Both the position numbers and the translations under genes were made by a program. From an uncultured Latescibacterota bacterium (GTDB taxonomy: Bacteria; Latescibacterota; UBA2968; UBA8231), in contig OX638377.1 of NCBI GenBank assembly GCA_951813615.1, positions 5,055,739 to 5,119,738 on the forward strand: DNA of 64,000 bases, read 5' to 3'. Below are positions 15,596-62,957 of this stretch, in pieces. The first letter of the stretch is position 1. Each line of letters opens with the position of its first letter. The notes beneath the pieces are model-generated. The model was not told the DNA's origin. It worked only from the letters and a program-made list of their open reading frames with translations, and did not search any database.

Positions 15596-16909
15596 GTGAA
15601 CCAACCTGAATCCATCGCTCCGGCCACGGGCAAACTCGGCGTCCTCATTCCCGGCATGGGCGCTGTGGCCACCACGGTTATCGCCGGCGTCGAAGCCATC
15701 AAAGCCGGCATTGGGCAGCCCATCGGCTCGCTGACCCAGATGGGCACCATCCGCTTGGGCAAGCGCACCGAAGGACGCTCGCCGCTCATCAAGGACTTCG
15801 TGCCTTTGGCCGACATCGACAGTTTGGTCTTCGGCGGCTGGGACGTCTTTCCAGAAGATGCCTATGACTCGGCTATCCACGCCGGCGTCTTGGACCAAAG
15901 ACTGCTCGACCAGATCGCGGATCCGCTCAAGGCCGTCAAGCCGATGCCCGCGGTTTTTGACCGCAACTACGTGCGCCGCCTCGAAGGCTCCAACGTCAAA
16001 AGCGCCAAGAGCAAGTGGGATGCCGTGCTGGAAGTGCGCGAAGACATCCAGCGCTTCAAGGCCGACAACGGCGTCGAACGGCTAGTGATGATCTGGTGCG
16101 GCAGCACCGAGATTTTCATGGAGCACCACGAAGTACACGACACCATCGAGGGACTCGAAAAAGCCATCCAGGAAAACCACCCGGCCATTCCCCCGAGCAT
16201 GATCTACGCGTACGCCGCGCTACAGGAAGGCGTGCCCTTTCTAAACGGCGCGCCGAATTTGACCGTGGATGTCCCGGCCATGGTCGAACTGGCGAAGCAA
16301 AAGGGCGTGCCCATCGGCGGCAAGGACTTCAAGACCGGCCAGACCCTGATGAAGACTCTGCTAGCCCCGGGTCTCAAGGCGCGGATGCTCGGCGTGCAGG
16401 GCTGGTTTTCGACCAACATCTTGGGCAACCGCGACGGCGAGGTGCTCGACGACCCCGATTCGTTCAAGACCAAGGAAGTCAGCAAGCTCGATGTGCTGGA
16501 GTTTATCTTGCAGCCTAGCCTCTATCCCGAGCTCTACGGCGATATTTACCACAAGGTGCGGATCAACTACTATCCGCCGCGCGGCGACGAAAAGGAGGGC
16601 TGGGACAATATCGACATCTTCGGCTGGATGGGCATGCCCATGCAGATCAAGGTCGATTTCCTCTGCCGCGATTCGATTCTCGCCGCACCGCTGGTTTTGG
16701 ACTTGGTGCTGTTTGCCGATTTGGCGCAGCGCGCGCAGATGGGGGGGATCCAAGAGTGGCTGTCGTTTTACTTCAAGAGCCCGATGACCGCGCCCGACCT
16801 CTATCCCGAGCACGACCTCTTCATCCAGCTAATGAAGCTCAAGAACACGCTGCGCTTCTTGCGGGGCGAAGATCTAATTACCCACTTGGGTCAGGAGTAC
16901 TACGACTAG
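15596..16909 (+). CDS. ino1: inositol-3-phosphate synthase
   Basis: 437 aa with bacterial/archaeal MIPS-type sequence (GVLIPGMGAVATTVIAG and a GKDFKTGQT region). AAAGGAG lies upstream of the GTG start. Its stop TAG shares the palindrome CTAG with the stop of the convergent regulator. Confidence 0.92.
   Translation: MNQPESIAPATGKLGVLIPGMGAVATTVIAGVEAIKAGIGQPIGSLTQMGTIRLGKRTEGRSPLIKDFVPLADIDSLVFGGWDVFPEDAYDSAIHAGVLDQRLLDQIADPLKAVKPMPAVFDRNYVRRLEGSNVKSAKSKWDAVLEVREDIQRFKADNGVERLVMIWCGSTEIFMEHHEVHDTIEGLEKAIQENHPAIPPSMIYAYAALQEGVPFLNGAPNLTVDVPAMVELAKQKGVPIGGKDFKTGQTLMKTLLAPGLKARMLGVQGWFSTNILGNRDGEVLDDPDSFKTKEVSKLDVLEFILQPSLYPELYGDIYHKVRINYYPPRGDEKEGWDNIDIFGWMGMPMQIKVDFLCRDSILAAPLVLDLVLFADLAQRAQMGGIQEWLSFYFKSPMTAPDLYPEHDLFIQLMKLKNTLRFLRGEDLITHLGQEYYD
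16880..16909 (+). repeat. att-like 30-mer, copy 1 (functional 3' end of ino1)
   Basis: ACCCACTTGGGTCAGGAGTACTACGACTAG recurs at 60055-60084 and 62679-62708. Confidence 0.85.
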
Positions 16910-19900
16910 ACGCCTTTAATACCCAACTTTCTCATTTTGCCGTACAGCGTCGAAGGCGGCACTCCCAGCAGAGCCGCCGCTCCTTGTGCGCCCTTGATCC
17001 GCCAGTTAGTGGCGTTGAGTACTTCGAGAATATAGCGGCGTTCAAATTCAGGGAGAGGCATTATTTCGCGGCCTTGAGAAACGGATAACGCCCTTGCTTT
17101 AAGGCCAACAGTGGGGTCTGTAATGTCAAAACCGCACTGCATGAGATCGGTCGTGCCGATTTGAGAACCATTGCAGGCTATGACTACCCGCTGCATGAAA
17201 TGCTCCAGTTCCCGCACATTCCCCGGCCAATCGTAGGTTTGCAGCATTTCCATAACCTCGGAACCCAAGGAGGCGGGTTCCTTGTCCAGGTAGGCTGCCA
17301 TGCGATTCTTGAAAAACTCGACTAGGGCCGGGATGTCCTCCTTGTGCTCGCGCAAGGGCGGGATGTACAGCGGAAAAAGCTGCAGGCGCGAATACAGTCC
17401 CTCGCGAAAAACACCAACCTGCACCATCTTCTGCAGGTCGCGACTAGTCGCGGCTACAATGCGCGTCTGCGCAGTTAGCGTCTGCTTGCCGCCAACTCGC
17501 TCAAACGTGCGCGCTTCCAATAAGCGCAGGATCTTGTCCTGCGTTTCCAGCGTCATCTCGCCGATTTCGTCCAAAAACAGGGTGCCGTCTTTGGCTAGTT
17601 CCACCTTGCCTACTTCGCTAGTAGAAGTCTTGTTTTCGCACCCAAAGAGTTCACTGTCGATCAACGCTTGGGATGAGGCCCCGCAGTTGACAGATATAAA
17701 AGGGCCGTTGCCATAGGCACTCAACGCGTGTAACACCCGTGCCACTGACTCCTTACCCACACCCGTTTCGCCTAGAATCAGTACGGTCAGATCGGTGGGT
17801 GCCACCTCCGTGAGTTTGGTTTGAAGCTGGCGCAAGCCCTTGGTCTGTCCAATCCATTGGTTACCCCCACAAAATGCGGCCTCCGGTTTTACCGCAAGCT
17901 GCACCTGCGCCGTCTCCGAGTAATTGAGATCCCGATCTATCGCCCGGACTTGAAAAGTGTAATCGCCCGGCGGCAGGTTTCGATAACAGGCTTGCATCTC
18001 TCGGGTCGCGGGCCCCCAGTCGAGGTCGTAGCCCTGCAAGCGATAGACATAGAGCATGTCGCGGGGATGGGTGGAAAAACTCAGGCCCTTGTACTCGAAA
18101 ACCACCGGCTGTCCCACCGTGGAGGAACAGACTTCCGCTAGGTTCTCATAGACCTGATCGGTGGTAACTCGGATGAGACGAATCAGGGGTGGCGTTTGCT
18201 GCGGCCGGTAGCGTATGATGGAACCCACGACCGTGCCGAACCAGAAGGTGCCGTCGCGATCTTCGAGGATGCGGCAAACGGGTCCTATATGAGGAGACTT
18301 GATCGTCTGGAAAAGCCGACCATCGTACTGAGCCACCCCTCGGTCGGTGCCGATCCAGAGGTGACCGCGCGTATCCTCCAACAAACAGCGGATGCGGTTA
18401 CTCGGCAGCCCGTCTTCGGTCGCGAAGGTGCGGAAGGTGCTGCCATCAAAGCAACTGATACCACCCCGCGTAGCGACCCATAGGTTACCCTGGCGGTCTA
18501 CTAGTAGGTCATTGACATGGTTGTCTATCAGCCCGTCTTCGACTCCATACCATGTAAGTCCGTCTTCAGGATGCCAGCGGGCGAAGCCGGTGCCGCTCGC
18601 TAGGCCATCGCTACTGGTCAAATGGAAATAGATTTCATTGTTGCGCGTGGCAATCACCGTGCCAATGCGGCTGTACGGTGTTTTTTTGCTATCCTCCGTA
18701 AAAATGGTTTGGCACTGCTCGCCTTGTTGGTACACGATCTGTAATGGACTGGCCAGAAGCTTCTTTCGTTCGCGTATGGTGTAGTGTTCCCAACAGCCAA
18801 AAATGAATCGTCCTTGCCGATCTTGCGTGATGCTGCTGATCCCCCCTGCGTCTACATCGACCGCTATGTTCTCCTTTTTGAGCGTCTGCCCGTCATAGCG
18901 GAATAGACCTCTTCCACCGCCGAACCATAGGTGCCCCTCAAGGTCTTCGTAGATGGAAAAACAGTTGCCGATACTAAGACTTTTCCCATCGGATACGAAT
19001 GTAAAGTGCTCGCCATCAAAGCGGGCGACGCTCTTGTTATAAACGGGGAGACGGGGCGATACATACCCGATCCATATATCACCTTGCCGGTCTTGCGCGA
19101 TCTGTGAGACTTCATTCGGGTTCTTAGGATAGTTCGCACGAAAGTCAAAAACGCTGATGCTATGCGCATCGTATAGCCCAACGCCGTTCCAAGTGGCGAA
19201 CCAAAACTGATCCTCGCGATCGTGGAAAACGGCTTTGACGGAGGAATGGGGTAGGCCATCGGCCGCGGTAAATCGGCTGAACCCGTCATCGTCTTGGTAG
19301 AACACGCCATCCAACGTGCAAAACCACATCCGGCCTTCCCGGTCGCACATAATCCAGCGCAGCCAACAATTCAAACCGACCTTAACATCCTCGAAGGTGT
19401 TATTGGCGTAGAAATGGAATCGGCCTTTCCGAATCCAACCGATCCACACCTTGCCGGTAGGGTCCTGGCCCACCGCATAACCGTGCTTGTCTCGGGGAAA
19501 ACCCTCATCCGCTTCGTAGCGGTGGAATGATCTGCCATCGTAGCGGACGAGGTTTTCAAAGCCAAACCACAAGTGGCCTTGTGGGTCTTGGACAATGCCC
19601 CGACAAAAGGAGGAGAGCTCCTTCGCAGAAAAAAGCTCCTGGTACTGCTGAAGGTAGAGCGGAGTCAAGTCGTGGAAAGCCGTGCCGTCGTAATACCCCA
19701 AGGTCTCAGTGCCACCGCACCAGATACGACCCTGACGATCCTCGTAGATGAACTGCACAGCCCGGCCGGCAATGCCGTCGTCTTCCAAGGGATGGAAGTC
19801 GGCTCCGTCGTACCAGCAGACCCCCTTTGATGTACCAAACCACAACCGCTCCTGACGATCCGGCTGAATAAAGGAAACTTGGTCGTCAATAAGACCGTCC

Positions 19901-20076
19901 TGTGTAGTGAAATTCTGGAACGCATCGCCGTCAAAGCGGCTGGCTCCGTTATCCCATGTGGCGAACCAGATATACCCTGCGCTATCCTCGGCGATGTGTT
20001 CAATGCGCAGCGATGGCAGGCCATGATCTATGTCATAGGTTTTCCAAGTACCTATGCGGCTCAGTGACTTGATCAT
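16906..20076 (-). CDS. cytoplasmic beta-propeller (Reg_prop/Y_Y_Y-type) sensor fused to an AAA+ sigma-54-interaction-type ATPase and a Fis-type HTH
   Basis: 1056 aa with no signal peptide or TM helix. About 700 aa consist of repeated W/F-G-T..G propeller blades. These are followed by a YYY-like domain (YRLQGYDLDW), Walker A GETGVGKE, Walker B TLFLDEIG, R-finger ERVGG, WPGNVRELE and a C-terminal HTH (AAALLGVPPSTLYGKMRKLGI). The GAFTGA loop is absent. Confidence 0.9.
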   Translation of the reverse strand: MIKSLSRIGTWKTYDIDHGLPSLRIEHIAEDSAGYIWFATWDNGASRFDGDAFQNFTTQDGLIDDQVSFIQPDRQERLWFGTSKGVCWYDGADFHPLEDDGIAGRAVQFIYEDRQGRIWCGGTETLGYYDGTAFHDLTPLYLQQYQELFSAKELSSFCRGIVQDPQGHLWFGFENLVRYDGRSFHRYEADEGFPRDKHGYAVGQDPTGKVWIGWIRKGRFHFYANNTFEDVKVGLNCWLRWIMCDREGRMWFCTLDGVFYQDDDGFSRFTAADGLPHSSVKAVFHDREDQFWFATWNGVGLYDAHSISVFDFRANYPKNPNEVSQIAQDRQGDIWIGYVSPRLPVYNKSVARFDGEHFTFVSDGKSLSIGNCFSIYEDLEGHLWFGGGRGLFRYDGQTLKKENIAVDVDAGGISSITQDRQGRFIFGCWEHYTIRERKKLLASPLQIVYQQGEQCQTIFTEDSKKTPYSRIGTVIATRNNEIYFHLTSSDGLASGTGFARWHPEDGLTWYGVEDGLIDNHVNDLLVDRQGNLWVATRGGISCFDGSTFRTFATEDGLPSNRIRCLLEDTRGHLWIGTDRGVAQYDGRLFQTIKSPHIGPVCRILEDRDGTFWFGTVVGSIIRYRPQQTPPLIRLIRVTTDQVYENLAEVCSSTVGQPVVFEYKGLSFSTHPRDMLYVYRLQGYDLDWGPATREMQACYRNLPPGDYTFQVRAIDRDLNYSETAQVQLAVKPEAAFCGGNQWIGQTKGLRQLQTKLTEVAPTDLTVLILGETGVGKESVARVLHALSAYGNGPFISVNCGASSQALIDSELFGCENKTSTSEVGKVELAKDGTLFLDEIGEMTLETQDKILRLLEARTFERVGGKQTLTAQTRIVAATSRDLQKMVQVGVFREGLYSRLQLFPLYIPPLREHKEDIPALVEFFKNRMAAYLDKEPASLGSEVMEMLQTYDWPGNVRELEHFMQRVVIACNGSQIGTTDLMQCGFDITDPTVGLKARALSVSQGREIMPLPEFERRYILEVLNATNWRIKGAQGAAALLGVPPSTLYGKMRKLGIKGV

Positions 20077-20262
20077 AAAAAATGTCCTACTCCCGAAAAC
20101 AGCTTTGAAGAAGGCGGTGTTCAGTTAGCGAAAAAAGCTTGACGCCAAACTTGAGACTTGAAAGAATGTAAGAGGTGATGTGGTAAATGTACCTCCTAAA
20201 AAGTATAGCGACACATTGGGTGATTACACAAATCATCTGTCATTAAAAGTCATTTTCATAAA

Positions 20263-20329
20263 AGACCATATATAGTCTAAAATTCATAAAAGACCATATA
20301 TAGTCTTTTATGTCCGACTAAAAATACCC
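20263..20329 (+). promoter_or_regulatory. two 28-bp-phased palindromic boxes (AGACCATATATAGTCT) plus the conserved 15-mer CGACTAAAAATACCC
   Basis: The box cores start at 20266 and 20294. The 22-mer CATAAAAGACCATATATAGTCT is repeated exactly (20257 and 20285). The 15-mer at 20315-20329 is identical to 37286-37300. Confidence 0.6.
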
Positions 20330-20362
20330 TGACGTAAGGCTTCAGAATTCCAACCCAATAAA

Positions 20363-20426
20363 TCATCAATAAATCACCAATAAAGACCTACAAGTCACCC
20401 AAATATCACCGACAAATACTTATTAT
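20363..20426 (+). promoter_or_regulatory. TCACC direct-repeat module (4 boxes) plus a -10-like TATTAT
   Basis: Boxes start at 20363 (TCATC), 20374, 20395 and 20406, giving spacings of 11, 21 and 11 bp. TATTAT lies 10 nt after the last box. The module is homologous to those at 22682 and 34404. Confidence 0.55.
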
Positions 20427-20657
20427 AGATTATAGAACGCGATTTATTACCGGCGGTGTGGGATACCAATATTCTTCCGCGACCATAAGCCTTCCGAGCC
20501 CGTGTAGTAGGATATCCATGTGCCGCTCGGTTGGCGACTACTCGGGCGAGAAACAACGTGCCGAGCCGCCTTGAGGTATGCGTTGTCGAGCCGCGTTGAG
20601 GGTCCGCGTTGGACCTTACGAGGCTATCAACCAACAATAAGGAGCTTATAGAAAAGC

Positions 20658-21383
20658 ATGATTTGTCGTCTTACCATCCTGCTGCTGGGCTTCGCCGCGC
20701 TGTTCGTTCTTTCCGGCCCGGCGCAAGCCCAGACCACGATCTGGTCGGCCACGCTGACGCCGAAGTCTTTCTCGAATTCGGTGGGCTGCGACAACGCCCA
20801 ACTTCAACAGTCTAGGAAATGCAGCAACAGCAACAGGCTGAGCGAGGACGATTTCACCGATGACGGTACGAGTTACCGGGTCAGAAAAATCGTTGGCAAG
20901 AATAATGGAGACCTGAAATTCCAGCTCACTGCGCAGGCCACTACCGCCACCCAGACACTGACACTGATGATTGGCGGCGCGTCATACGCTCTGGCGGACG
21001 CCGCTCACACGACCCCCAGCAACAGGAGTACTTGGAAGTGGAGTAACGCCAACCTGAGTTGGAGTGCCGACACCGACGTCGCCGTGTCGCTCGTTGCGAT
21101 CGACGCCACCGCCACCGGCCAGCCGAGGATTTTCGGCGCGCCACAGGTGGGCAAGACGCTGACCGCGCTGATCGACGACATCGAAGACGGCGCGGGACTA
21201 CCGGCTGGGCTATCAGCTAACCCTGTTGAAGGATGCCGCCGTACGCTTCGAACTAGGAGTCGATGCCACGCGCCGCGAGGCCCTGCGCCAAGGCGAGGAG
21301 GACCATCGCGTTCTGGGCCGCATCACGACGCGCTGGTAAACGCCACGGATCCTAGGGTGGAAGGTAACGGACGTATCCTATGA
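20658..21383 (+). pseudogene. deletion remnant of an autotransporter-type giant adhesin gene (signal peptide plus first modules fused out of frame to the last ~47 barrel codons)
   Basis: The N-terminus is MICRLTILLLGFAALFVLSGPAQA|QTT. The motif GQPRIFGAPQVGKTLTALIDDIEDGAG matches the PTISGAPQVGELLTADTSGIEDTDG modules of the giant genes. From about 21196 a different frame reads DYRLGYQL...DHRVLGRITTRW*, which resembles the barrel end ARLGYRL...DHFVGMRAGMRW*. The current ORF may still yield a 241-aa secreted product. Confidence 0.55.
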
Positions 21384-22510
21384 GGAAGTGGGTCTGTGTA
21401 GTTTTGATGTTGTCTGGTATGAGTGTAGTATGGGTAGCTTGTTCGGTGGATCATCCGGTAGCCCCTTTGGGGCCAGCGGCAAAAATGACCACGAACGATT
21501 CGTCTGAGCGGCACTATATCCACTGGACCTGTGGTGCCAACGAATGGTCCCTACCAGCCGACTCCGTGTGGACGATCTTCTATGGCTCCAATCGGTTCTA
21601 CACGGATGGGCAGCGCGTCCAGATCTCCGAGTATCTCACCCCCAATTCCAGGCGCGTCTATTGGGCCGCTGAGACGGCCAGTGAACGATACAAGCGCGCC
21701 AGCGCTGGCTTGGTGCTGTCCGATAACACCTGCGCCCTTTGGAGCGACCTGATTGACCGGGACACCTCTGTGGTCCGCATCTATCGCGGTGAGGTCAAAT
21801 GGCACTACCGGGACTATCCGGATCATTCTCAATACGCGCTGGTAGAAAACGAGGAGACCTACCGCATCGCCTATGTCCGGGACAGCTTGGTGGTTCACCG
21901 AGATTTTGACTACTGGTTCGACCGCGATCCACACCCGACGGCCTTGGGCGACGCCCAGGCGTACTATCCTTTCAACTTCAGTCAGACCGCCATAGACACT
22001 CTGCCGAACGTGCCCGAAGATGACCGGCCCTACTTGCTTGATGTGGTGTGCGTCGGCGACGAGCTCCCTGAGTTCTTACGGCCAACGGCGACGCAGACGA
22101 CGGTGCGGTCTGCGGGTGGAGGAGGTGATGACAGCTACATTGGTGTTCAGTCCTCTGAAGAGGCGGAGGATCTTACTCCGGTGGCAATAGATTGTGGCTC
22201 GGTCCCGCAAGAGGTTCTCGATTCCCGCGGTTTGTTAGATGAGCTTCAAGAAAATCGCGACGAAAATCATGCTGTTTGGGCGGAGGAAGTGCAGGCTTTT
22301 ATCGAAAGTCTTGGTATCGAAGAGCTAAAGGAATGTCTTGTTCCGTTGAGCTATGAGCCTCTTACGTATCGCTATGACCCTCCTTGTACAGAGCATAATG
22401 AAGCATATGTTGCGCATAAGGAAACGGACCATCTGTTTAACGCTGCGCAAAGAGCTTTGGAGCAACTGGAAGAAGAGCATGGAATTGCTCCTGAATGTCG
22501 ATCTTTGTAG
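21380..22510 (+). CDS. hypothetical lipoprotein (orphan)
   Basis: It has a signal peptide with a lipobox-like VWVAC. I recognise no known motifs. The C-terminus is acidic and helical. The start overlaps the preceding stop (ATGA). Confidence 0.6.
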   Translation: MRKWVCVVLMLSGMSVVWVACSVDHPVAPLGPAAKMTTNDSSERHYIHWTCGANEWSLPADSVWTIFYGSNRFYTDGQRVQISEYLTPNSRRVYWAAETASERYKRASAGLVLSDNTCALWSDLIDRDTSVVRIYRGEVKWHYRDYPDHSQYALVENEETYRIAYVRDSLVVHRDFDYWFDRDPHPTALGDAQAYYPFNFSQTAIDTLPNVPEDDRPYLLDVVCVGDELPEFLRPTATQTTVRSAGGGGDDSYIGVQSSEEAEDLTPVAIDCGSVPQEVLDSRGLLDELQENRDENHAVWAEEVQAFIESLGIEELKECLVPLSYEPLTYRYDPPCTEHNEAYVAHKETDHLFNAAQRALEQLEEEHGIAPECRSL

Positions 22511-22681
22511 TTGACGCCCAAGGCTTATAGGTAGTCAGCCGCCGCTAACTGTCCCCAAAAGCGCGACCCCAACGTACCATCCCGGAACACGCCGCCCACA
22601 CTCCCTTGCGGCTCCTACGCCATCTATCGCCGGTCTGCCCAATGGCCCAGCTAGGGCCAATTATGCCGTATGGGCAAAATG

Positions 22682-22768
22682 TCACCAATAAATCACCGGA
22701 AATGTCACCAATAAATCACCGAACCAGACCTGCAAGTCACCCAAATATCACCAATAATTTTGTAGTTT
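22682..22768 (+). promoter_or_regulatory. TCACC direct-repeat module (6 boxes) plus a -10-like TAGTTT
   Basis: Boxes start at 22682, 22693, 22705, 22716, 22737 and 22748, giving spacings of 11, 12, 11, 21 and 11 bp. An A/T hexamer lies 10 nt after the last box. Confidence 0.55.
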
Positions 22769-22815
22769 AAAAGGCAATGTTGTGGGGTCCCAAGACGGAG
22801 GCATGTGGAGAACTT

Positions 22816-25800
22816 ATGAAACACGCAGGGCGTTATTCCCTTCCGAGTAATCCTGAATCTACCGCGAGGCCATCGGGCCGTCTGCGGCTGTGGTGCGGGC
22901 TGGCTGCCGGGCTGTTGCTGTGCGCCGCTACCGTCCAGGCGGGTCCAGCCACCGGCAAGCCCACCATCTCCGGCGCGCCGCAGGTCGGCGAGCTCCTGAC
23001 CGCAGACACCAGCGGCATCGAGGATACCGACGGCCTGGGCACGTTCAGCTACCAATGGATCCAAGTGGACGACCTCACCGAAACGAACATACTGGGTGCC
23101 ACGAGTAGCACGTACACGCCAGTAGCGGCGGATATAGGGAAAACCCTCAAGGTGAAGGTGAATTTCACTGACGGTGAGGGCAATGCCGAGACACTGACCA
23201 GCGACGCCTATCCGTCGGCGGGCTACCCCGTAGTAGCCATCGTGGCGGCGAAGACGACATGCCCTACCGACAGCGACTGGTGCGCGGAGCTAGGGGTGGG
23301 ATACCAGGGAATCTTCTCCGTGGGGGGGACTGACCTATATCTCGGTTACGATGTAGGATCTGGCGAAGGACACCTCGGGACACTCAGTGACACGGACGTC
23401 AGCCATGGTGAGTCCACCTACGCGTTTGCATCGATCAAATTCGTTTCTCGCTCGGGTATCTCCTACGTTCAGGTGAAGCTCGACGGACCCATGCCGATGG
23501 GGACGGTCTTCAATCTGGGCGGGACCACGTTCACAGCAAATCCTGTAGACTGGACATATCTTAGTCCCGGCAATGGAGAGTATAAATTTATAACGCCCTC
23601 CGGCTTCGGCATGGTCGAAGGCCAGAAGATGACGGTGAGTGTGAACTTCCCCGCCGACGTGACCGATAACAGCGGCGACGTCATTGATCCACCGATTAGT
23701 AGTCGTACACGTGCAGTCAAAGCTGCAATCGTTGCCGCAAGTGGCGTACAGACCGCCGCCGCCGTAACCGCTGAACATCTGGCTAATATCACAACGTTGG
23801 ACCTGAGCGAAAAATCAATCACGTCGTTGACTGCCGGCGACTTCAATGGACTCACCCAACTGGTACAGCTCGATCTGAACAACAACGATTTGAGCTCTTT
23901 ACCATCGGGTATCTTTAGCGAGTTGACCGCATTAAAGAACCTTGATCTATCCGATAACCGCTTGAGTGCTTTGCCGGCGGGCCTCTTTGACGACGCTACT
24001 GCACTGAGGGAGGTTCAACTGCAGTTTAACGAACTGAGCACTTTGCCAGCGGGAATTTTTAAAAATAGCAGTGAATTGAGGGATTTTGATGTGGAGCAAA
24101 ACAATCTGACCTCTTTGCCGGCGGATATTTTTCAAGATACTCCCAAATTGTACAGACTTTTTATGAGGCAAAACGAATTGGAGTCCGTGTCGTCGGACCT
24201 CGTTAGTGGTCTCTCCAACTTGTTCCTGTTCCATATAGGCTTCAACAACTTGGACTCTTTGCCGGCGGGTTTCTTTGTCGGACTCACCAATCTGAAATGG
24301 CTGTATGTGATGGGGAGCACCTCCTCATACACGACGCCCTTTACTGTGTCCTTAGAGAAGGTCGAAGACGGGAAAGTCAAGGCAGTCATCCGGGAGGGTG
24401 CGCCGTATGACATCCAAGTACACGTCACTGTTGAGAACGGTAGCCTCGCCGACGATGCGACCCTGATCGCGATCCCCCAAGGCGTGGTCGAAAGTGAAGC
24501 TATTGCCGTAACGCGTACCCCAGGAACAACGGGTGCCGTCACCGTGGATATTGAAAGGTATGGAGTTACCCTCCCTACTGGACTGCCGGTGCATCGGGGA
24601 TTCGAACTCGTGAAGCCAACCACGGGACTGCCGGTCGAAATCTATGCGGAGGTGGCGCTGTCGCTGAGCACGAGTTCGGTGGACGAGGATGCCGGGGCGA
24701 CTTCAATCACGGTTACCGGTACGCTGAACGGGACAACACGCACGGCGGACACGCCGGTGACGGTGGCGGTGGGCACCTCCAGCGACACCGCGACCGAGGG
24801 TACGGACTATGCCACAGTCAATGACCTCACACTGACCATTTTGGCAGGCGAGACCTCGGGCACCGCGTCGTTCACGCTGACCCCCACCGACGACGATGTG
24901 GACGAGGCGGACGAGACCCTGTCAGTCTCGGGCACCACCACGGCAACGGACCTCAGCGTAACCGGAACGACGGCGACCATCGTGGACGACGACGAGCGGG
25001 GTGTAGAGGTGTCGGCGACGACGCTGAGTGTGTCGGAGGGCGGTACGGCCACCTACACAGTGGCGCTGGAGTCCAAACCGACGGATACGGTGACGGTGGC
25101 GCTGTCGGCAAGCGGCGATGCAGACGTGACGGTGAGTCCCTCGTCGCTGAGCTTCATCACCGAAAACTGGTCCACGGCGCAGACGGTGACGGTATCGGCG
25201 GCGCCGGACGCCGCCGCGCGGGGAGACAGGGCAATGATCGCGCACGCGGCGTCCGGCGGGGACTACGGCTCGGTGTCGATAGACGCCGTGTCGGTGACAG
25301 TCGCACCGGGTCAGGTGACGGGAGTGACGGTAAGCGCAGGCATCGAAGAGTTGACAGTGACTTGGGATGCGGTCAGCAATGCAGACGGCTACAAGGTGCA
25401 GTGGAAGTCGGGCAGCGAGACATTTGCCAGCGCGGCCACCGACAACCGGGAAGCGACGATAGCTTCGGGCACGACGACTAGCTACGCGATCACGGGGCTG
25501 ACCAATGGTACGGCCTACAGCGTGCAGGTCATTGCGACCCGGGCCAACTCAGACGACGGGACGGCGTCGGCACCGGCAACGGCGATGCCCGTAGCACAGG
25601 CGAGGATCACCAGCGTCGAGTTCACCAACGTACCGTCGAGCGGTGTATACGGCTTGGGCAGCACGATTGAGGTGAGCGCGAGGTTCGACGCCGCGGTGGA
25701 GGTGACTGGGATGCCACAGATTCAATTGACTTTCCCCAGTACAACGATGTCCAACAAGTACGTCCACTACGACGACGCGGCGAGCACGGATAGGGTCTTG

Positions 25801-34036: not shown

Positions 34037-34190
34037 TTCATCTCCTCCATCGGGATGCGGAATGTGTGGTTATAGGATCATTGAGGTTTTTAAACCAGAA
34101 AAAGCTACCTGTTTGGTGGACATACAACGTCGTCTGTCATACGACTGAATCGAGCAGATTGGAGAATTTTAGAACAGTCTTTATTAGGGG

Positions 34191-34236
34191 CCATATATGG
34201 TCTTTTTTAATTAAAGGGCTATATATGGTCTTTTTT
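34191..34236 (+). promoter_or_regulatory. two 28-bp-phased palindromic boxes (CCATATATGGTCTTTTTT / CTATATATGGTCTTTTTT)
   Basis: The cores start at 34191 and 34219. They lie in the AT-rich region between the divergent HK-RR gene and the 34685 gene. Confidence 0.6.
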
Positions 34237-34403
34237 CAGCTATCATTTTATCGATTTCTATTTGTTAATTAATTTTTTATTCATCCTAAACAATAATTAA
34301 AAGATTGTGAGGCGCAAATGCCAATGAGCTAACCATAGGCGACAGACGAGTGATACCAAGCCGAGGCAACGCGGAGGACTTCTTGGGAAAGGGACCCATA
34401 AAA

Positions 34404-34467
34404 TCACCAAGAAATCACCGAAACAGACCTGCATGTCACCCACAAGTCACCAAGAAATTTTTAATAT
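34404..34467 (+). promoter_or_regulatory. TCACC direct-repeat module (4 boxes) plus a -10-like TAATAT
   Basis: Boxes start at 34404, 34415, 34436 and 34447, giving spacings of 11, 21 and 11 bp. TAATAT lies 10 nt after the last box. Confidence 0.55.
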
Positions 34468-34684
34468 AGTATTGTTGTGTTGTGGGGTGCTAAGAATGTC
34501 TCCAAAGATCATAAGCCTTCCGAGTCCAGCAGGATAACCGTGTGACGCTCGGTTGGCGGCCACTTTGTCGGGATGAGGGCGAGAAAGGGAGGAGTGGGCA
34601 CGGGAACGGATCACCGAATCAGGATCGGAATGCTGCTGCTCTCAAAAGGAAAGAAAAGCGAGAGGTAGAGCATACAGGAATAAA

Positions 34685-34921
34685 TTGATGGGTATTTCAA
34701 CGATGAGACGAATGGGGCGTCGCCACGAGCCTAGTGCTGGTCGGCACGAAGAGCGAGGGCAGGATAACCAGCCGGCGCTTGCACGGGCCGCGTCTCCAGC
34801 CGGGTCCCTTCTGGTGTTCCTTGCCCTGTTCGCCTGCGTCGCCATGATGGCCCCCCAGCCGCCCACGCGCAGACGGACAGCGACACGATTCCCACCGCGA
34901 GGCTCAAGAGCCTCACGGTGA
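34685..34921 (+). CDS. 5' segment encoding the signal peptide of the downstream ORF, separated from it by a frameshift in a C6 tract
   Basis: This frame encodes ...GSLLVFLALFACVAMMAP and then runs into Arg-rich nonsense. One extra C at 34851-34856 would read MMAPPAAHA|QTDSD... straight into the 34918 ORF. Confidence 0.6.
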   Translation: MMGISTMRRMGRRHEPSAGRHEERGQDNQPALARAASPAGSLLVFLALFACVAMMAPQPPTRRRTATRFPPRGSRASR

Positions 34922-36984: not shown

Positions 36985-37055
36985 CTTGACAGCGCGCTTC
37001 GAAGCAATACCCCCACGCCACGCACGACGGTAGCGAGTTTACCTTTTGTACGCAG
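36695..37055 (+). repeat. duplicated T9SS-CTD coding end plus ~70-bp 3' flank (partner 59646-59996)
   Basis: The CTD codons are roughly 85-90% identical by eye. The flank TAGCTTGACAGCGCGCTTCGAAGCAATACCCCCACGCCACGCACGACGGTAGCGAGTTTACCTTT is identical. Confidence 0.85.
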
Positions 37056-37181
37056 TAGCACTCTATCTTGGGGTGTATCGAAAACTGTGACCCAAGACCT
37101 ACGCCTTCAAGCCGTCCGACAATTCTGAGTTCCCCCTTTTCCTCCTTCAGATTACAGCTAGACAATCTTTCTTCAAAAAGA

Positions 37182-37300
37182 CCATATATGGCCCTTTTTA
37201 TAATTTATACCATATATGGTCTTTTTGTTATTTTATATCATATATGGTCTTTTGATTTATTTTTTGTTTTATATGGTCTTTTACTCGACTAAAAATACCC
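37182..37300 (+). promoter_or_regulatory. four 28-bp-phased palindromic boxes (CCATATATGGTCTTTT) plus the conserved 15-mer CGACTAAAAATACCC
   Basis: The cores start at 37182, 37210, 37238 and 37267. The 15-mer is at 37286-37300. The array lies about 180-300 nt upstream of the giant-gene ATG. Confidence 0.65.
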
Positions 37301-55400: not shown

Positions 55401-58400
55401 CTCCGGCGGCGACTACGGCTCGGAGACAGCGGACGATGTGGCGGTGACGGTCACGGACGATGAGACGGCATCAACGAAGGTGACGCTGTCGGCGAGTGCG
55501 ACATCGGTAGATGAGGACGCGGGCAGCACGAGCGTGACGGTGACGGCTGAGTTGGACGAAGCAGCGCGGACCTCGGCGACAGAGGTGACGGTGGTGGTAG
55601 GTGCGTCGGGGGACGGTGCGACGGAGGGGACGGATTACGCCACGGTCAATGACTTTACACTGACCATCGCGGCGGGTCAGACCTCGGGTACGGCGAGCTT
55701 CACGCTGACGCCAACGGATGACGATGTGGACGAGGAGGACGAGACACTGACGGTGGACGGCACCGTGCAAGATCTGACCGTGACGGCGACGACGCTGACC
55801 ATTGAAGACGACGACACGCGCGGGATTGCGGTTTCGCCAACCAATCTGACGGTGGCCGAGGGTAGAAGCAAGTCCTACACGGTGGTACTGTCGTCACAGC
55901 CGACAGGCGCAGTGACGGTCACGCCGAGTGTCAGCGGTGATTCGGACGTGACAGTGGCTCCCTCAAAGCTGACGTTCACAGAGGACAACTGGGATCAGCC
56001 GCAGACGGTGACGGTCTCGGCGGCACAGGACGCCGATGCGGAGGACGCTTCTGCAACCATAGTGCACGCGGTGTCCGGCGGCGATTACGGCTCTGAGACA
56101 GCAGCCGATGTATCGGTGACGGTCACGGACGATGAGACGGCATCAACGAAGGTGACCCTATCGGTGAGTGCGACATCGGTAGATGAGGACGCGGGCAGCA
56201 CGACCGTGACGGTTACGGCCGAACTGGACGAGTCGGCACGGACCTCGGCGACGGAGGTGACGGTATCGGTAGGTGCTGCGGGAGACGGTGCGACAGAGGG
56301 CACGGATTACGCCACAGTGAGCGATGTCACCCTGACCATCGCGGCGGGTCAGACGAGCGGGACAGCCAGCTTCACGCTGACGCCAACGGATGACGACGTG
56401 GATGAACAGGCTGAGACGCTGACGGTGGACGGCACGGTACAGAGTCTGACGGTGACCGGGACGAGCCTGACCATCGAAGACGACGACACGCGCGGGATCG
56501 AGGTCTCGTCAACGGACGTGACAGTAGCCGAGGGCGCAGGCAGTTCGACCTACACGGTGGTACTCGAAAGCCAGCCGACAGCCGACGTCACGGTGACGCC
56601 GAGTGTGAGCGGCGATTCGGACGTGACGGTGGCTCCTTCGACGCTGACGTTCACAGAGGACAACTGGGATCAGCCGCAGACGGTGACCGTGTCGGCGGCG
56701 CAGGACGCCGATGCGGACGACTCGTCTGCAACCATAGCGCACGTGGTGTCCGGCGGCGACTACGGTTCGGAGACAGCGGACGATGTAGCGGTGACGGTCA
56801 CCGACGACGATATAGCCGTGTCGGCGGCGACGCCTTCGACCTCTTCGACCGCGACGTCGGTAGGCTCGATCTACCTGTGCGGTGCCACGGTCGGGACGAC
56901 GACGGGCGTGGCCTATGATTCGTCGGTGGACGTGTGCTGGGACACCGGGAGTTCGATCCCCACGGGCAGCGACGTGGTCATCGAGGAACGCAGCAAGGAC
57001 TATTGGAACTCCCCTAATTCGTTTTCCTCATGGCAAGAAATCGCCCGTGGCAACACCTTCACGCCGTGCTCCGAAGGCGACGATAGCTGCGTGCAATACG
57101 CACACACCGGCTTGAGGCGAGCAGGAACCTTCACGCAGGAGCTACGCATCCGCCAAGGTAGCAACGTACTGAAGACCTCGCCGCAACTGAAGGCCGCCGC
57201 CCCCAACAGCAACGGGAAAGGATTGCAGGCGCAGCTATCGACGGCTATGGACGAGGACACCTGGGCCTTTATCGAAAAGCCAACAGGGCCGTTCGTGGTA
57301 GGGCTGGTATTCAGCGAGCCGGACCTGGGTGCGACCTACGCAGAGGAGGCCGTGCAGGGCCTCGGGACGGACGACTTTCGGATGACCAACGGCACCGTGA
57401 CCGCCATCGAAGGCTGGAACAGCGGAGGCTACAAGGTCCGCGTTACGCCGACCACGCTGGGCGAGCCGGTGACGATCAAGCTGAAGGCAAAAACGGTCCA
57501 GGGCGTGGGTGAGGGCATCACGGCGGCTGGCACGAACACGTTCACGCGCAGCAACACCGGATCGAACAAGGTTGTGCAGGAGACTGCTGCCGCCGCCGGG
57601 AAGGTGACCGTCACGCCGGGACTCTCGGTGGCCGACGCCGAGGTAAACGAAGGCGCAGACGCGACGCTCTCGTTCCAAGTAACGCTCAGCCGAGCGGCCT
57701 CGGGTTCGGTGACCGCGGACTGGGCGACGGCGGACGGCACGGCGACGGCGGGGCAGGATTACACCGCCGCCCGTGGCACGCTGACCTTCGCCACGGGTGA
57801 GACATCACAGACGGTGACCGTGACCGTGCTCGACGACACACACGACGAGGGCACGGAGACCCTCACCCTCACGCTCTCGAATCCGTCGGGCGCGCGGATT
57901 ACCGACGGCACGGCGACGGGTACGATTATAAACAGCGACCCGATGCCCCAAGCATGGCTGGCGCGGTTCGGGCGCACAGTGGCGGACCAAGTGCTGACGT
58001 CAGTGAACAATCGGGCGCGGACGGCGCGGACGGCGCGGGTGCCGGGCTTCGAAGCCCGAATCGCCGGACAGCGGCTTGAGGGCCTATTGGCGTCAGACGA
58101 AGAAGAGGAGCCGGAGGCGGCACGCCACCAGAAGGTGGACGGACCCTCCCGCAAACGCGACGAGCGGGGAACGTGGTTGCGGGAGGTGACGGCACGTGAC
58201 TTCGTCACCGGCTCCTCCTTCGCGCTGACGGGTGAAACGCAAGAGAGTGGCTTGGGTTCGCTGTGGGGACAGGGAACCCTCGCACGCTTCGACGGGCGCA
58301 AGGGCGACCTCTCGCTCGACGGCGAGATTCTGAGCAGCTTGTTGGGTGCGGACTGGACGAGAGGACGTGGGATCGCGGGAGTCTTACTCTCGCACGCACA

Positions 58401-59366: not shown

Positions 59367-59478
59367 GCGCATGGAGTACCGCCCTGCCGGTGCCGCTGTA
59401 ACGGATTGGGCACGGACGTGTTAGAGTGACTACTATCCGCAGGACTTCACGATCTACTTTGTACCGGAGCAGACCACG

Positions 59479-59934
59479 GTGAATGCGGGCGTGGCCTTGC
59501 TCCCGGATACGGTGACCGACGACGGCGGGACGATCAATGTCCGCATCAGTAATGCCCGGCTGACGACGGATAACTGGGAACGGACGCTGACAATCACCAC
59601 GGCGGAGGCGACGGGGATGATCCACAACAGCGGTGGCAAGCCGGTCGCTCTGCCGGACCGACCCCAGTTGGCGCAGAACGCACCCAATCCATTCAACAGT
59701 CAGACGACGCTAGCCTATTTCTTGCCCGCGGCAGGGCCAGTGCGCTTAGAAGTGTTCTCGTTGAGCGGACAACGGGTGGCGGTTCTGCGCCACGGGCTGA
59801 AACAGGCCGGCTATCACCAACTGCGCTGGCAGGGCCGCGACGACGACGGTCGTCGGGTCGCGAGCGGCATATACCTATACAGGCTGATGACGACCGAAGA
59901 GGTCTTGACGGGCAAGCTCATCCTGCTGCGGTAG
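59479..59934 (+). pseudogene. 3' relic of a T9SS-CTD protein gene, paralogous to the end of 34918..36984
   Basis: It encodes half a Calx-beta module plus a complete CTD (LAQNAPNPFNSQTTLAYFL...KLILLR). Upstream in the same frame, decayed Calx-beta sequence (EYRPAGAAVTDWARTC*SDYYPQDF) contains a TAG at 59422-59424. There is no signal peptide or start context. Confidence 0.65.
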
Positions 59935-59996
59935 CTTGACAGCGCGCTTCGAAGCAATACCCCCACGCCACGCACGACGGTAGCGAGTTTACCTTT
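59646..59996 (+). repeat. duplicated T9SS-CTD coding end plus 3' flank (partner 36695-37055)
   Basis: See the partner entry. Confidence 0.85.
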
Positions 59997-60054
59997 GCGT
60001 TGCGCTTTGATGAGGAAATCTCGATCAGCTATTTGACTCGTCCATCTCACCATC

Positions 60055-60333
60055 ACCCACTTGGGTCAAGAGTACTACGACTAGCTTACCAGAGCGTGTA
60101 CCCGCCATCGACGACCAAGTCGTGGCCGGTCGCGTAGGAAGAGGCGTCCGAAGCGAGGAAGACGACGGCACCCTGATAGTCGGCAGGAACGCCTAGACGG
60201 CCCATCGGCGTGTTGGCGAGCCAGGCGTTTTTCATGTCGTCTTCGGCGTGCGCGGTCATGGGGGTAAGCGTGTGACCGGGGCTGATGGAATTGACGCGGA
60301 CGCCTTGCGCGGCCCACTCTGCAGCGCACACTC
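60055..60333 (+). repeat. direct repeat, copy 1 (ino1 3' relic plus SDR 3' fragment)
   Basis: It is collinear and near-identical to 62679-62957. It begins with an ino1-end relic encoding ITHLGQEYYD*. Confidence 0.85.
60086..60333 (-). pseudogene. duplicated 3' fragment of the SDR gene at 62709..63476
   Basis: The last ~82 codons (CAAEWAAQGVRVNSISPGH...DLVVDGGYTLW) are nearly identical to the intact copy. Homology stops abruptly at about 60333. The N-terminal two-thirds of the enzyme are missing. Confidence 0.85.
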
Positions 60334-60491
60334 CCAAGCTCAAAATCAACAGGTGCTTGACACAGGGAGTGGTCGTACTCATATATGTAAACTCATACAT
60401 CGCAACCATATGCTACTAGGCGAAAGCACGACTCCTGTTAGAAGGCCGAGTAACCCGAACTCACGTTATTCAAAGGAGAGGCGGCGGCGTT

Positions 60492-62627
60492 ATGAAGACA
60501 GCAATCGGATGGTTCGTCGGATTAGTTTTAAGCGTCCCCATGTCGGCGGAGCCACTGCTTGAAGGGCGGGTGCGATTGGAATCTGGGGAGCCCGTGGTCG
60601 ACGCGCAGGTGCGAATCTTCGATTTGAGCGACCTGCGGCAGGGAGCCATTGCCCGAGCGATAACCGATGGCACGGGATATTTCACACTGCCGTTAGCCGC
60701 TCTGACGGGGCAGGTGCTGCCAGAGCGGTTCGCGTTGGGGCCGAATTATCCCAATCCATTCAATCCCTCGACGATCATTCCCTATCAACTGGCGGCTTCG
60801 GCTCAGGTGCGGCTGGAGGTGTTCAACCTGTTGGGGCAGCGCATTGCGACGTTGGTGGATGGGGAGCGTGTGGCGGGCTTTCACAAGACGACGTGGCACG
60901 CGGTGGATAGGGCGGGTCGTGCGGTAGGAGCGGGGGTATACATCTACCGAATGACGGTGGGGGTGGAGAGCCAGACGGGTCGGATGGTGCTGCTTGACGG
61001 GCACGCGGGTGTCTCGGCTGGTGGAGCCGCTTCTGTTTGGTCTGGTGCGTCTGGTGTCGGCGGGTCGGATGGGGAAGGTGCGCAGGTGTATGGGTTGGTT
61101 GTTTCGGGTCGTGGGTTGGTTCCCTATGTGGATTCGGCCTTTCGGGTTGAGTCGGGCATGGCCCCGGTGGAGTTGGTGGTGTCGTCGGGACCGCATTCGG
61201 CGGGCAAGGCCACAGAAGACGACTGTTTCTTTTGCAGCTTTTTCGGCGGGCTTGAGAGTTCGGAGGGACCGGACCTGATCGTCCAGTCTCCTTCGGTCAG
61301 CGCCGTCAGGCTGACGCCGGGGCAAGCGTTCATCTTGCAGGTCACCGTGCATAACCAAGGCGACGGGCAGGCCGCGGCGGCGACGCTGCACTACTATCGC
61401 TCCAACAAGGCGACGATTACTGCTAGCGATACGAAAGTGGGTACCGACGCAATAGATGCACTGGACGCCTCGGCCACCCGTGCGGCGTCGATTAGCCTAA
61501 CGGCCCCCTCTCCCGGTACCTACTACTACGGGGCCTGCGTGGAGTGGAAGAGCGGCGAGAAGGCCGGGAATAACTGCTCTACTGGCATACGCGTGATCGT
61601 CGAAAATTGGGTTCCCAGCAACGGAGGCTCCGTGACCAGCATCACGGGGCTCACTGGAAAGACGACGCTGACGGCACACCCGAATCCCGGATACGACTTC
61701 CAGCAGTGGACCAAGGGCGGCGAAACGCTATCGACCGATACCACCTATGTCGCGGAAGCCATCGACGCGCAGGAGCTCTTGGCCCACTTCTTGGTCAACC
61801 AGGACCGAGGGAAGTGGAACGTGGGGCAGACATACTCTTGGTACACATTCCCGGAGGGCGAATACGAGAGCTTAGAGTGGACGTTCATGTCTGTGGCCGA
61901 TCCATCGGAGAGCCTGAGCAAAGAGGGCCTTCTTCACTACTACGCCTACAGCTTCTTCTTGGTCGACTACACCGAAGACGGCGGCAAAGGGTATGCCGGA
62001 TTTCAGTCTGACGGCCGCTTCCGCCGCGCCAAGACGTTCACCTACGAGCCGCAGGGAAAGGTCATCAACTACGCGATCTGGGGCTCAAACGGCGGCAAGA
62101 CCGACGGGTTGCATCAACCCTACAACCTGGAAAGCGGGGGTCATCAGATCATGTACCCGTTCGAGTGGATCGAGGGGCAGGCCTATCGGTTCGAGTTGCG
62201 CGAGGGGCCAAGCGGATTGGACGACCGCGGGAAGTGGTGGGGACTGTGGGTTGAGGATGTGGCGACCGGATCGGTCACCTTCGTCGGAGAGCTGCGGGTG
62301 CCGACTAAGATCAACGGGCGAGACGCCACGATGTGGAGTTCGCTCACGTACGTGTTCGGGGAAGACCTGCACTGGTGGCGTGCCTCTAGGGGCGAGTACA
62401 TCTGCAGCGACTTTCAGCCGTCGTCGATGGCCGTATTAGATGTAACAGCGGGTGCCAACCGAGCCCAGCCTCAGGTCAGCTACAACGTCAATAGCGGCGA
62501 AGGCTATACTTGGCCGAATGGACGCAAGACGACCAACTGCCACGTGACCATGTTCGCGAACGAACAAGGCGACACGCAGCATAACCTCGGATTCTGGCCC
62601 GAGCCTCCACCGAATGTGCTGGATTAA
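60492..62627 (+). CDS. secreted multidomain protein: CarboxypepD_reg-like domain, internal T9SS-type CTD, CARDB-like domain, InlB-B-repeat-like domain and an unknown ~300-aa C-terminal domain
   Basis: It has a signal peptide. EGRVRLESGEPVVDAQVRIFD indicates the CarboxypepD_reg-like domain. PDLIVQSPSVS...VTVHNQGDG indicates CARDB. GYDFQQWTKGGETLS indicates the B-repeat. The C-terminal domain with GYAGFQ is only tentatively DUF3472-like. Confidence 0.8.
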   Translation: MKTAIGWFVGLVLSVPMSAEPLLEGRVRLESGEPVVDAQVRIFDLSDLRQGAIARAITDGTGYFTLPLAALTGQVLPERFALGPNYPNPFNPSTIIPYQLAASAQVRLEVFNLLGQRIATLVDGERVAGFHKTTWHAVDRAGRAVGAGVYIYRMTVGVESQTGRMVLLDGHAGVSAGGAASVWSGASGVGGSDGEGAQVYGLVVSGRGLVPYVDSAFRVESGMAPVELVVSSGPHSAGKATEDDCFFCSFFGGLESSEGPDLIVQSPSVSAVRLTPGQAFILQVTVHNQGDGQAAAATLHYYRSNKATITASDTKVGTDAIDALDASATRAASISLTAPSPGTYYYGACVEWKSGEKAGNNCSTGIRVIVENWVPSNGGSVTSITGLTGKTTLTAHPNPGYDFQQWTKGGETLSTDTTYVAEAIDAQELLAHFLVNQDRGKWNVGQTYSWYTFPEGEYESLEWTFMSVADPSESLSKEGLLHYYAYSFFLVDYTEDGGKGYAGFQSDGRFRRAKTFTYEPQGKVINYAIWGSNGGKTDGLHQPYNLESGGHQIMYPFEWIEGQAYRFELREGPSGLDDRGKWWGLWVEDVATGSVTFVGELRVPTKINGRDATMWSSLTYVFGEDLHWWRASRGEYICSDFQPSSMAVLDVTAGANRAQPQVSYNVNSGEGYTWPNGRKTTNCHVTMFANEQGDTQHNLGFWPEPPPNVLD
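60729..60998 (+). other. T9SS-type (FlgD-Ig-like) sorting domain located internally (aa ~80-169 of 711)
   Basis: FALGPNYPNPFNPSTIIPYQL...VRLEVFNLLGQRIATLVDG...GAGVYIYRMTV...GRMVLLDG matches the C-terminal domains at 36695 and 59646. Here it reads on for a further 540 aa. Confidence 0.7.
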
Positions 62628-62678
62628 CAAACGGGGGCATTGTGACGCGCAAGCTCACTCCGCTGCGTTGAGCATGCT

Positions 62679-62957
62679 ACCCACTTGAGTCAAGAGTACT
62701 ACGACTAGCTACCAGAGCGTGTACCCGCCATCGACGACCAAGTCGTGCCCGGTTGCGTAGGCTGAAGCGTCCGAAGCGAGGAAGACGACGGCCCCCTGAT
62801 AGTCGGCAGGGACGCCTAGACGGCCCATCGGCGTGTTGGCAAGCCAAGCGTTTTTCATGTCGTCTTCGGCGTGAGCGGTCATGGGGGTGAGCGTGTGGCC
62901 GGGGCTGATGGAATTGACGCGGACGCCTTGCGCGGCCCATTCTGCGGCGCACACTCT
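62679..62957 (+). repeat. direct repeat, copy 2 (ino1 3' relic plus 3' end of the intact SDR gene)
   Basis: It is collinear and near-identical to 60055-60333. Confidence 0.85.

Follow-up and report, generated by a model that had tools for sequence, protein, structure and literature searches.

We analysed a window of 64,000 nucleotides from an uncultured Latescibacterota bacterium (assembly GCA_951813615.1, contig OX638377.1, positions 5,055,739 to 5,119,738 of the forward strand), in which two core genes, ino1 and an SDR gene, are separated by about 46 kb of cargo and the 3' end of ino1 occurs three times. The left anchor of this ino1-SDR locus is ino1 itself (15596-16909, plus strand; Pfam PF07994/PF01658), which encodes myo-inositol-1-phosphate synthase, is intact and shares 92-98% amino acid identity with its orthologues at 26 related loci. 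The right anchor is an intact SDR gene (62709-63476, minus strand), recognized by Pfam as a complete SDR, with orthologues of 87-95% amino acid identity in related Latescibacterota. Beyond it lies the 3' part of the next core gene (63504-64000, minus strand), which belongs to the mandelate racemase/enolase superfamily in relatives. This racemase-like gene adjoining the SDR gene (window 63504 onwards) has shrunk to a remnant of 55 amino acids in two metagenome contigs described below, L152 (13071-13238) and L154 (1632-1799).

The last 30 nt of ino1 (ACCCACTTGGGTCAGGAGTACTACGACTAG; 16880-16909, plus strand) return twice on the same strand as scars, at 60055-60084 with one mismatch and at 62679-62708 with two mismatches; matches to this 30-mer appeared in none of 100 shuffled sequences, and the chance expectation is 0. 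The stop codon of a convergent SDR sequence follows 0-1 nt past each relic. A direct repeat of 279 nt, made up of the blocks 60055-60333 and 62679-62956 (94.3% identity, one indel of 1 nt), brackets a 2.3-kb insert with a single gene, p711. The SDR sequence of the second block is the end of the intact gene, while that of the first is a dead 3' fragment (codons ~174-255; 60086-60333, minus strand), in which Pfam finds only the C-terminal third when the open reading frame (ORF) 60086-60409 on the minus strand is examined. In these respects an earlier note, made from the letters of this window, was borne out: it had described the three ino1 ends with 0, 1 and 2 mismatches, the direct repeats of ~280 bp, the relics abutting the 3' ends of a convergent SDR gene, and a first SDR copy that is a fragment beside a second that is intact. 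The frame of the fragment ORF is still open and is fused to ~25 codons of the region upstream of p711, and it is annotated as a predicted gene of 104 amino acids in five assemblies. We also considered whether the 30-mer is a dispersed repeat. Among 13 sponge-associated Latescibacterota assemblies (some labelled Gemmatimonadota), each genome has a single copy, at the ino1 end, apart from one extra relic, and the 30-mer is therefore not dispersed.

The larger part of the cargo is a 43-kb block, hereafter the island, which begins with a gene for a sigma-54-dependent activator (16906-20076, minus strand) and ends with p151 (59479-59934, plus strand), an ORF of 151 amino acids with a T9SS-type C-terminal domain assigned by Pfam, and a 120-nt spacer (59935-60054). 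The spacer-scar junction ...CTCACCATC|ACCCAC (window 60054/60055) is identical in the metagenome contigs L154, L158 and L159, in which p151 orthologues adjoin the equivalent scar. The smaller part consists of the upstream region of p711 (60334-60491; 98.7% identical to that of L152), whose left edge is an illegitimate junction with the SDR fragment, p711 itself (60492-62627, plus strand), which encodes a secreted CARDB/InlB-B-repeat protein of 711 amino acids according to Pfam, and a 51-nt flank (62628-62678). The p711 protein also contains a FlgD_ig/T9SS C-terminal-like domain at residues 98-155, near its N terminus; T9SS sorting domains are normally located at the C terminus of proteins. Orthologues of p711 adjoin the SDR gene in VXML61/L153, L152 and L155, and the junction at the third 30-mer copy is common to L152, L155, L158 and L159. 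The flank holds the relic of a T9SS C-terminal-domain gene end (GACGCGCAAGCTCACTCCGCTGCG; 62640-62670), in which 21 of 24 positions, counted by hand in the alignment, agree with the end of the p151 gene. Such a gene end (GACGCGCAAGCTCA..CTGCG) precedes both 30-nt scars, at ~11 and ~123 nt, and the two scars probably derive from one ancestral scar.

In order to compare this arrangement with those of relatives, we scanned with ino1 and SDR, which gave 26 loci, many of them on complete chromosomes; the comparison of the site covers ~25 related sponge-associated Latescibacterota genomes. Three relatives (OZ244561.1, OZ253462.1 and L157) carry an empty site, in which ino1 converges directly on the SDR gene with a 2-nt spacer, and the ancestral state that the earlier note had deduced is thus directly seen. 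The 279-bp block of the window aligns unbroken in OZ244561.1 and OZ253462.1 (ino1 TAG, 2 nt, SDR stop), and it aligns once and contiguously at the empty sites L030 and L032. Across the relatives the interval holds 0, 2.35-2.45, 5.9, 11.3, 11.6, 16.3 or 46 kb of unrelated cargo, in agreement with the proposal of repeated insertion at one site. The 2.35-2.45-kb cargo consists of a C5-cytosine methylase gene and an ORF for a partner of 334 amino acids, that of 5.9 kb is an MPAB/MMPL/LolA-like/DUF1302 cassette, and those of 11-16 kb bring such cargo together with the sigma-54 activator in various combinations. The methylase pair (2.35 kb, with a 14-nt scar) was located at this site in L018 (11338-13565), L152 (7274-9495), OZ247580, JAJEFJ68, JAJDVZ178 and CBDCDC2. 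It is probably a type II restriction-modification system; the partner has no Pfam or NCBIfam match, and its putative assignment as a restriction enzyme comes from adjacency. In OY282352.1 the two ends of the methylase pair lie 760 kb apart (L031 and L085), indicating a rearrangement through the pair.

The ino1-tail scars beside the SDR gene were found to differ in length: those of 14 nt have either of two left neighbours, and the others measure 30 nt, 54 nt (JAPPEG12) and 70 nt (OZ241867). The repeats of 134, 236 and 279 bp take in the 3' end of the neighbouring gene. In OZ241867, 70 nt of ino1 and 64 nt of the sigma-54 activator gene make up a 134-bp repeat, 94.8% identical, that flanks 7.4 kb, while a 236-bp repeat in OZ220721, 90.7% identical and with ~200 nt of SDR within it, flanks 5.9 kb. 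Identity within the three long repeats examined is 91-95%, in no case close to 100%. In OZ244790, OZ241889 and OZ220721 the joint lies at different internal points of the MMPL cassette, and the left and right ends of the cargo differ between islands. L021 (JAPPEG010000012.1, 19883-20473) has a direct fusion of a 54-nt ino1 scar and an SDR fragment with a mutated stop (codons 181-255) to the 3' part of the racemase-like gene, and the intact SDR gene of the same metagenome-assembled genome is located on another contig, L080. When metagenome contigs were scanned for a scar joined to an SDR end (TACTACGACTAG-N1-5-CCAGAGCG), the one match, L151, was unrelated and had arisen by chance.

We then examined the differences between the two copies of the 279-bp repeat. 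In the SDR part there are 16 differences, of which 14 are at third, two at first and none at second codon positions; 14 are synonymous and two non-synonymous (P = 7e-4 vs a conservative decay model). At 12 of the 15 informative sites both states are present among 17 live orthologues. The dead fragment is 96.0% identical to the live SDR gene of another species (VXML61) and 93.6% to that of its own genome, and the independent SDR fragment of OZ220721 shows nine synonymous differences and one non-synonymous difference. Since the differences are mostly synonymous and are shared as polymorphisms with live genes, the copies diverged while both stood in working genes of different lineages. As judged from the sequences, the repeat copies are alleles from different lineages, and conversion between the 94.3% identical copies is also evident. 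Together with the separate parental haplotypes described below, the allelic copies led us to reject an in-situ tandem duplication followed by insertion as the main explanation.

Through homologues of p711, p151 and the fragment ORF we reached several long-read metagenome contigs, two of which show the halves of the window apart. In L154, an adhesin end and p151 precede 120 nt, a 30-nt scar and an intact SDR gene. In L152 (1.38 Mb), the order is ino1 and the methylase pair, a 14-nt scar with the SDR fragment, the upstream region of p711 with p711 itself, and a 30-nt scar with the SDR gene. In L155 an adhesin end is followed by 'cttgacagaaaag', a 12-14-nt scar, the fragment, p711, the 30-nt scar and the SDR gene. 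Finally, L158 (217 kb) and L159 (169 kb) encode proteins different from those of the window, yet the gene order and both scar junctions are exact matches to it. At least four haplotypes of the locus occur together in one sample, ERZ18545484. The SDR fragment has an equivalent inner junction in L152, L155, L158 and L159, and the boundary between the fragment and the p711 upstream region is identical in these four and the window and contiguous in alignments, indicating that it arose once. Three versions of the segment left of the fragment occur among the same five, and the fragment may have served as a homology anchor for swaps of the left block.

The identity between the window and L152 is a mosaic of 84-100% per 100 nt. 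The flanks are 90-98% identical, the mosaic extends along ino1, the fragment, p711 and the SDR gene, and the alleles of the fragment and of the live SDR gene are reshuffled among haplotypes. The window fragment matches that of L152 from ~60 nt inside SDR and diverges toward the stop codon and in the scar; a crossover with an L154-type donor would fall there. By this sequence comparison, the window is a recombinant of two haplotypes, one carrying the island, a scar and an intact SDR gene and the other carrying the restriction-modification pair, a scar, the SDR fragment, p711, a scar and the SDR gene. The mechanism, which the earlier note had called unexplained, is no longer so: the 30-mers are the live gene end and the recombination scars of two haplotypes.

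One joint could be compared with both of its parents. The sequence of OZ220721 runs from ...GCTGATGGAA, the end of the SDR fragment, into ATGGAAATAGAT... of the cassette, with a 6-nt microhomology, ATGGAA, that is present in the live SDR gene and in the left region of the OZ244790 cassette. The other joints show compatible overlaps of 2-4 nt, namely CTAG between ino1 and the sigma-54 activator gene and AG at the 14-nt scars. At the left end of the island, the stops of ino1 (plus strand) and the activator gene (minus strand) overlap in the palindrome CTAG at 16906-16909. The earlier note had placed the start of the cargo exactly at the ino1 stop codon; a junction does lie there, but the overlap leaves no clean gap. 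The activator gene likewise converges on ino1 in OZ220690, OZ220721 and VXML51. The window has the junction TAG|ACGC|CTTTAAT, vs TAG|GAACGTTTAAT in relatives, and because of this 5-nt difference the activator ends in KGV* instead of KRS*, its last two residues being changed. ACGC also starts the left end of the methylase pair in L152 (TAG|ACGCTTGGGC), and the window tetranucleotide may, tentatively, be a 4-nt trace of a displaced methylase pair.

Based on these observations, we suggest that the ino1-SDR interval is probably an integrase-free recombination hotspot in a population of sponge-associated Latescibacterota with coexisting strains, which is built by homologous recombination in the flanking genes and dead fragments and by occasional microhomology joins. 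Incoming DNA of a related lineage would pair homologously on one side, with ino1, the SDR gene or a dead fragment of either, and would join on the other side at a microhomology. If this join cut into the tail of a resident gene, the severed piece would stay as a scar and the incoming DNA would bring an intact gene end; since the donor would supply a complete gene end, both core genes would survive every event. Existing scars and fragments would then act as homology for double-crossover swaps of whole blocks. In the order of events that we infer for the window, the island with the sigma-54 activator and T9SS-type adhesin genes would first have joined ino1 and left a 30-nt scar beside the SDR gene, the form seen in L154. 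In another haplotype, the p711 module, probably with the same ancestral scar, would have joined 250 nt inside SDR and left the dead fragment, the form seen in L152 and L155. A crossover inside the SDR fragment would finally have put the 43-kb island and its scar ahead of the fragment. The three 30-mers would then be the live ino1 end, the scar travelling with the adhesin island (L154) and the scar travelling with p711 (L152).

The locus resembles two kinds of systems that have been described. Hotspots free of mobile genetic elements (Oliveira et al. 2017, PMC5635113) likewise consist of a variable interval between core genes, contain no integrase or transposase, turn over unrelated cargo rapidly and have mosaic flanks. 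Unlike those hotspots, the ino1-SDR flanks converge and abut with a 2-nt spacer, and insertions therefore had to leave gene-end scars that record single events; the island in addition has dead gene fragments as extra anchors. Sequential displacement by homology-facilitated illegitimate recombination (HFIR) has been proposed for type VI secretion system (T6SS) effector-immunity arrays of Vibrio cholerae and for Rhs and contact-dependent inhibition (CDI) orphan arrays (Kirchberger et al. 2017, PMC5361080, which cites de Vries & Wackernagel 2002, Prudhomme et al. 2002 and Meier & Wackernagel 2003 on HFIR). These arrays and the ino1-SDR locus share an anchor on one side with a non-homologous join on the other, retained 3' fragments, members from multiple lineages and the lack of an integrase. 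At the ino1-SDR locus we found a homologous anchor with signs of recombination, copies from different lineages, and retained remnants of ino1 (the scars), of SDR and, over 64 nt, of the sigma-54 activator gene. Unlike the HFIR arrays, its cargo does not consist of toxin-immunity modules, both sides serve as anchors, the fragments are without evident function and the blocks reach 43 kb.

Here, several points that weigh against the proposed hotspot need to be considered. Scar length repeats with different left neighbours, being 30 nt after both p151 and p711 and 14 nt after both the methylase pair and the sigma-54 activator upstream region; in view of the T9SS gene ends (21/24), the two 30-nt scars plausibly share an origin, which for the 14-nt pair is not shown. 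The check for microhomology was confined to a single joint, the one whose two parents are known. If 43 kb had been imported through one-sided homology, the tract would be of unusual length. A simple double crossover, with exchanges in ino1 and in the fragment, would avoid such an import, but the left junction of the donor was not recovered. The route of DNA transfer in these uncultured bacteria, by competence or otherwise, rests on inference, and the very first insertion beside ino1 is beyond reconstruction.

In the main alternative, the p711 module would have come into an ino1-SDR junction as a circle or by way of a staggered break, 279 bp of ino1 tail and SDR 3' end would have been duplicated in situ, and gene conversion or allelic replacement would have introduced the allelic differences afterwards. 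A process of this kind, insertion with long target duplication, was reportedly noted by Nobusato et al. 2000. In its published cases (Furuta et al. 2010, PMC2853133), direct repeats tens to hundreds of bp long have a single counterpart in the empty genome and often lie over a gene 3' end, and mobility genes are missing. The window repeat likewise exceeds 30 bp, aligns once in empty genomes and overlaps gene 3' ends, and the insert is below 20 kb (2.3 kb) and free of mobile genes. In relatives, moreover, this site is occupied by the methylase pair, probably a restriction-modification system. A precursor of the form ino1, fragment, p711, scar and SDR gene would also let the methylase pair (in L152) or the 43-kb island (in the window) enter by double crossover, and the conversion between repeat copies is in keeping with the later steps. 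However, this precursor haplotype was not found. The insert gene, p711, is no restriction or modification gene such as characterizes the cases of Furuta et al., and the methylase pair of relatives has a repeat of only 14 nt. Unlike the repeats in those cases, the window copies are allelic and not near-identical, though later conversion may have altered them, and the other two long repeats are also well below 100%. The synonymous polymorphisms shared with live orthologues would require an extra replacement in each lineage, and the equivalent joint in OZ220721 is a microhomology join of two known sequences. We regard long target duplication as unlikely.

The attL/attR-type or Campbell-type integration of the earlier note, acting twice at one point, would require a site-specific recombinase, encoded elsewhere or lost, with crossovers at positions -30 and -14 from the ino1 stop; in a variant, a resident restriction enzyme would break the AGTACT palindrome. 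Integrase islands and prophages at gene 3' ends do resemble the ino1-SDR locus, in that the target stays intact (ino1 in every case), the insert lies between repeats of the gene 3' end and multi-repeat arrays may arise, and here too the empty sites OZ244561.1, OZ253462.1 and L157 hold a single repeat copy. The recurrence of scar boundaries with different neighbours (30 nt twice, 14 nt twice) and the presence of the methylase pair, probably a restriction-modification system, in many relatives are also in line with this alternative. Nevertheless, the locus departs from it in the following respects. First, scars of 54 and 70 nt exist beside those of 14 and 30 nt, and the repeats reach 64 nt into the sigma-54 activator gene or 200-250 nt into SDR. 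Second, island ends are not conserved, the joints of the MMPL cassette shift and one junction falls in the 6-nt microhomology. The variable scars, the repeats that run into neighbours and the shifting joints do not fit a recombinase with a fixed crossover. Third, the 279-bp copies are different alleles and not a fresh duplication. Fourth, haplotypes matching the two halves of the window exist apart (L154 and L152), and recombination between them accounts for the third 30-mer. Finally, the cargo consists of ordinary chromosomal genes that are not like those of mobile elements; a similarity search with 16910-22776 gave no phage match, and plasmids gave only generic AAA+ matches.

The search for mobility functions was in agreement with these observations. 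By Pfam, none of the sizeable ORFs of the window, those of its left housekeeping flank and its cargo included, has an integrase or transposase domain, no tRNA was detected in the window, and the statement of the earlier note that these are missing holds. Among the examined ORFs of the ~25 relatives (by Pfam, precomputed for L152, L153, L155, L157, L158 and L159) there was no recombinase in or beside the locus, and the Pfam scans showed no TnsA/B/C/D-type or transposase domain such as a Tn7-like insertion downstream of a conserved gene would call for. The window has no Rfam family. The list of inverted repeats, which came from no search aimed at terminal inverted repeats, contained no pair at the block borders, and the scars measure 14-70 nt and not the 5 bp of a Tn7-type target duplication. 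Capture of a dif/Xer type was considered and set aside, as the 30-mer is not dif-like by eye (no formal comparison was made) and the cumulative GC skew suggests no terminus nearby. Site-specific integration thus appears very unlikely. It is equally doubtful that the repeated scar boundaries reflect, in place of common descent, a trans-acting activity that breaks the ino1 tail at -30 (|ACCCAC) and -14 (|AGTACT, a palindrome) and so seeds integrase-free capture of islands; a chromosomal recombinase or cleavage by the restriction-modification pair resident at the site could be candidates for such breaks.

An assembly chimera, in which two coexisting haplotypes were joined through their shared SDR 3' sequence, is close to refuted: both halves do exist as separate metagenome haplotypes with the repeat as their sole link, but the long-read contigs L158 and L159, from strains with different proteins, carry both relics in equal order with identical junctions, a 6.27-Mb chromosome-level record encodes products identical to p711, p151 and the fragment ORF of the window, and L155 independently has the succession of adhesin, scar, fragment, p711, scar and SDR gene, and the window is therefore not a chimera.

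With regard to the cargo, Pfam confirmed the giant adhesin genes and the own regulators that the earlier note had described. The activator encoded by the first island gene combines a Reg_prop/Y_Y_Y sensor with AAA+ and HTH_8 domains. Next to it, the segment 20077-22776 comprises an AT-rich regulatory region with paired palindromes and two ORFs on the plus strand (20658-21383 and 21380-22510) with no family match. The following genes encode an LRR/fn3/Calx-beta surface protein of 2924 amino acids (22777-31551, plus strand), a hybrid GAF-PAS histidine kinase with receiver and OmpR-type DNA-binding regulator domains (31652-34036, minus strand), a secreted protein of 688 amino acids with Calx-beta, PPC and T9SS-type C-terminal domains (34918-36984, plus strand) and, recognized by Pfam and its internal repeats, a Calx-beta/cadherin-like/SWM-repeat/fn3 adhesin of 7301 amino acids (37447-59352, plus strand). 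The two giant adhesin genes share C-terminal ends of 97% identity (30223-30522 vs 58024-58323), and the end of the 688-amino acid gene is 86% identical to the p151 end with 62 nt downstream (36681-37046 vs 59632-59996), indicating that the 43-kb block grew partly through internal segmental duplication. Distant ino1 homologues (55-76% amino acid identity) have neither the sigma-54 activator nor the SDR gene downstream, and they are therefore uninformative on the origin of the island.

Shared motifs were observed upstream of the cargo genes. The palindrome AGACCATATATGGTCT occurs in tandem with 28-nt spacing at 20263-20306, 34188-34231 and 37179-37250 (7 sites vs 0.04 expected), in three AT-rich intergenic regions upstream of cargo genes, and the motif is also found directly past ino1 in L012 and L013. 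It is probably an operator for one of the island's own regulators. A 'leader' cassette with TCACC direct repeats, 69-88% identical, precedes three cargo genes (20353-20542, 22705-22795 and 34394-34564). When we searched for the canonical sigma-54 promoter (TGGCAC-N5-TTGCW, at most one mismatch), the intergenic regions, leader cassettes included, contained none, and the overall count did not exceed chance. The suggested link between the regulators and the cargo is based only on adjacency and the shared upstream motifs.

Taken together, the apparent mystery of att-like repeats on a 46-kb island without a recombinase is removed. The ino1-SDR locus is a new and well-resolved example of an already known kind of system, and it is an unusually legible one, in which the growth of an integrase-free hotspot can be read from the sequence event by event and dead gene fragments are visible as portable homology arms. 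Giant LRR, cadherin-like and Calx-beta surface proteins with their regulators form a gene set that is usually linked to host interaction in sponge symbionts. Since at least four of its haplotypes occur together in one sample, the locus could serve as a marker of strain-level exchange in this uncultured phylum.

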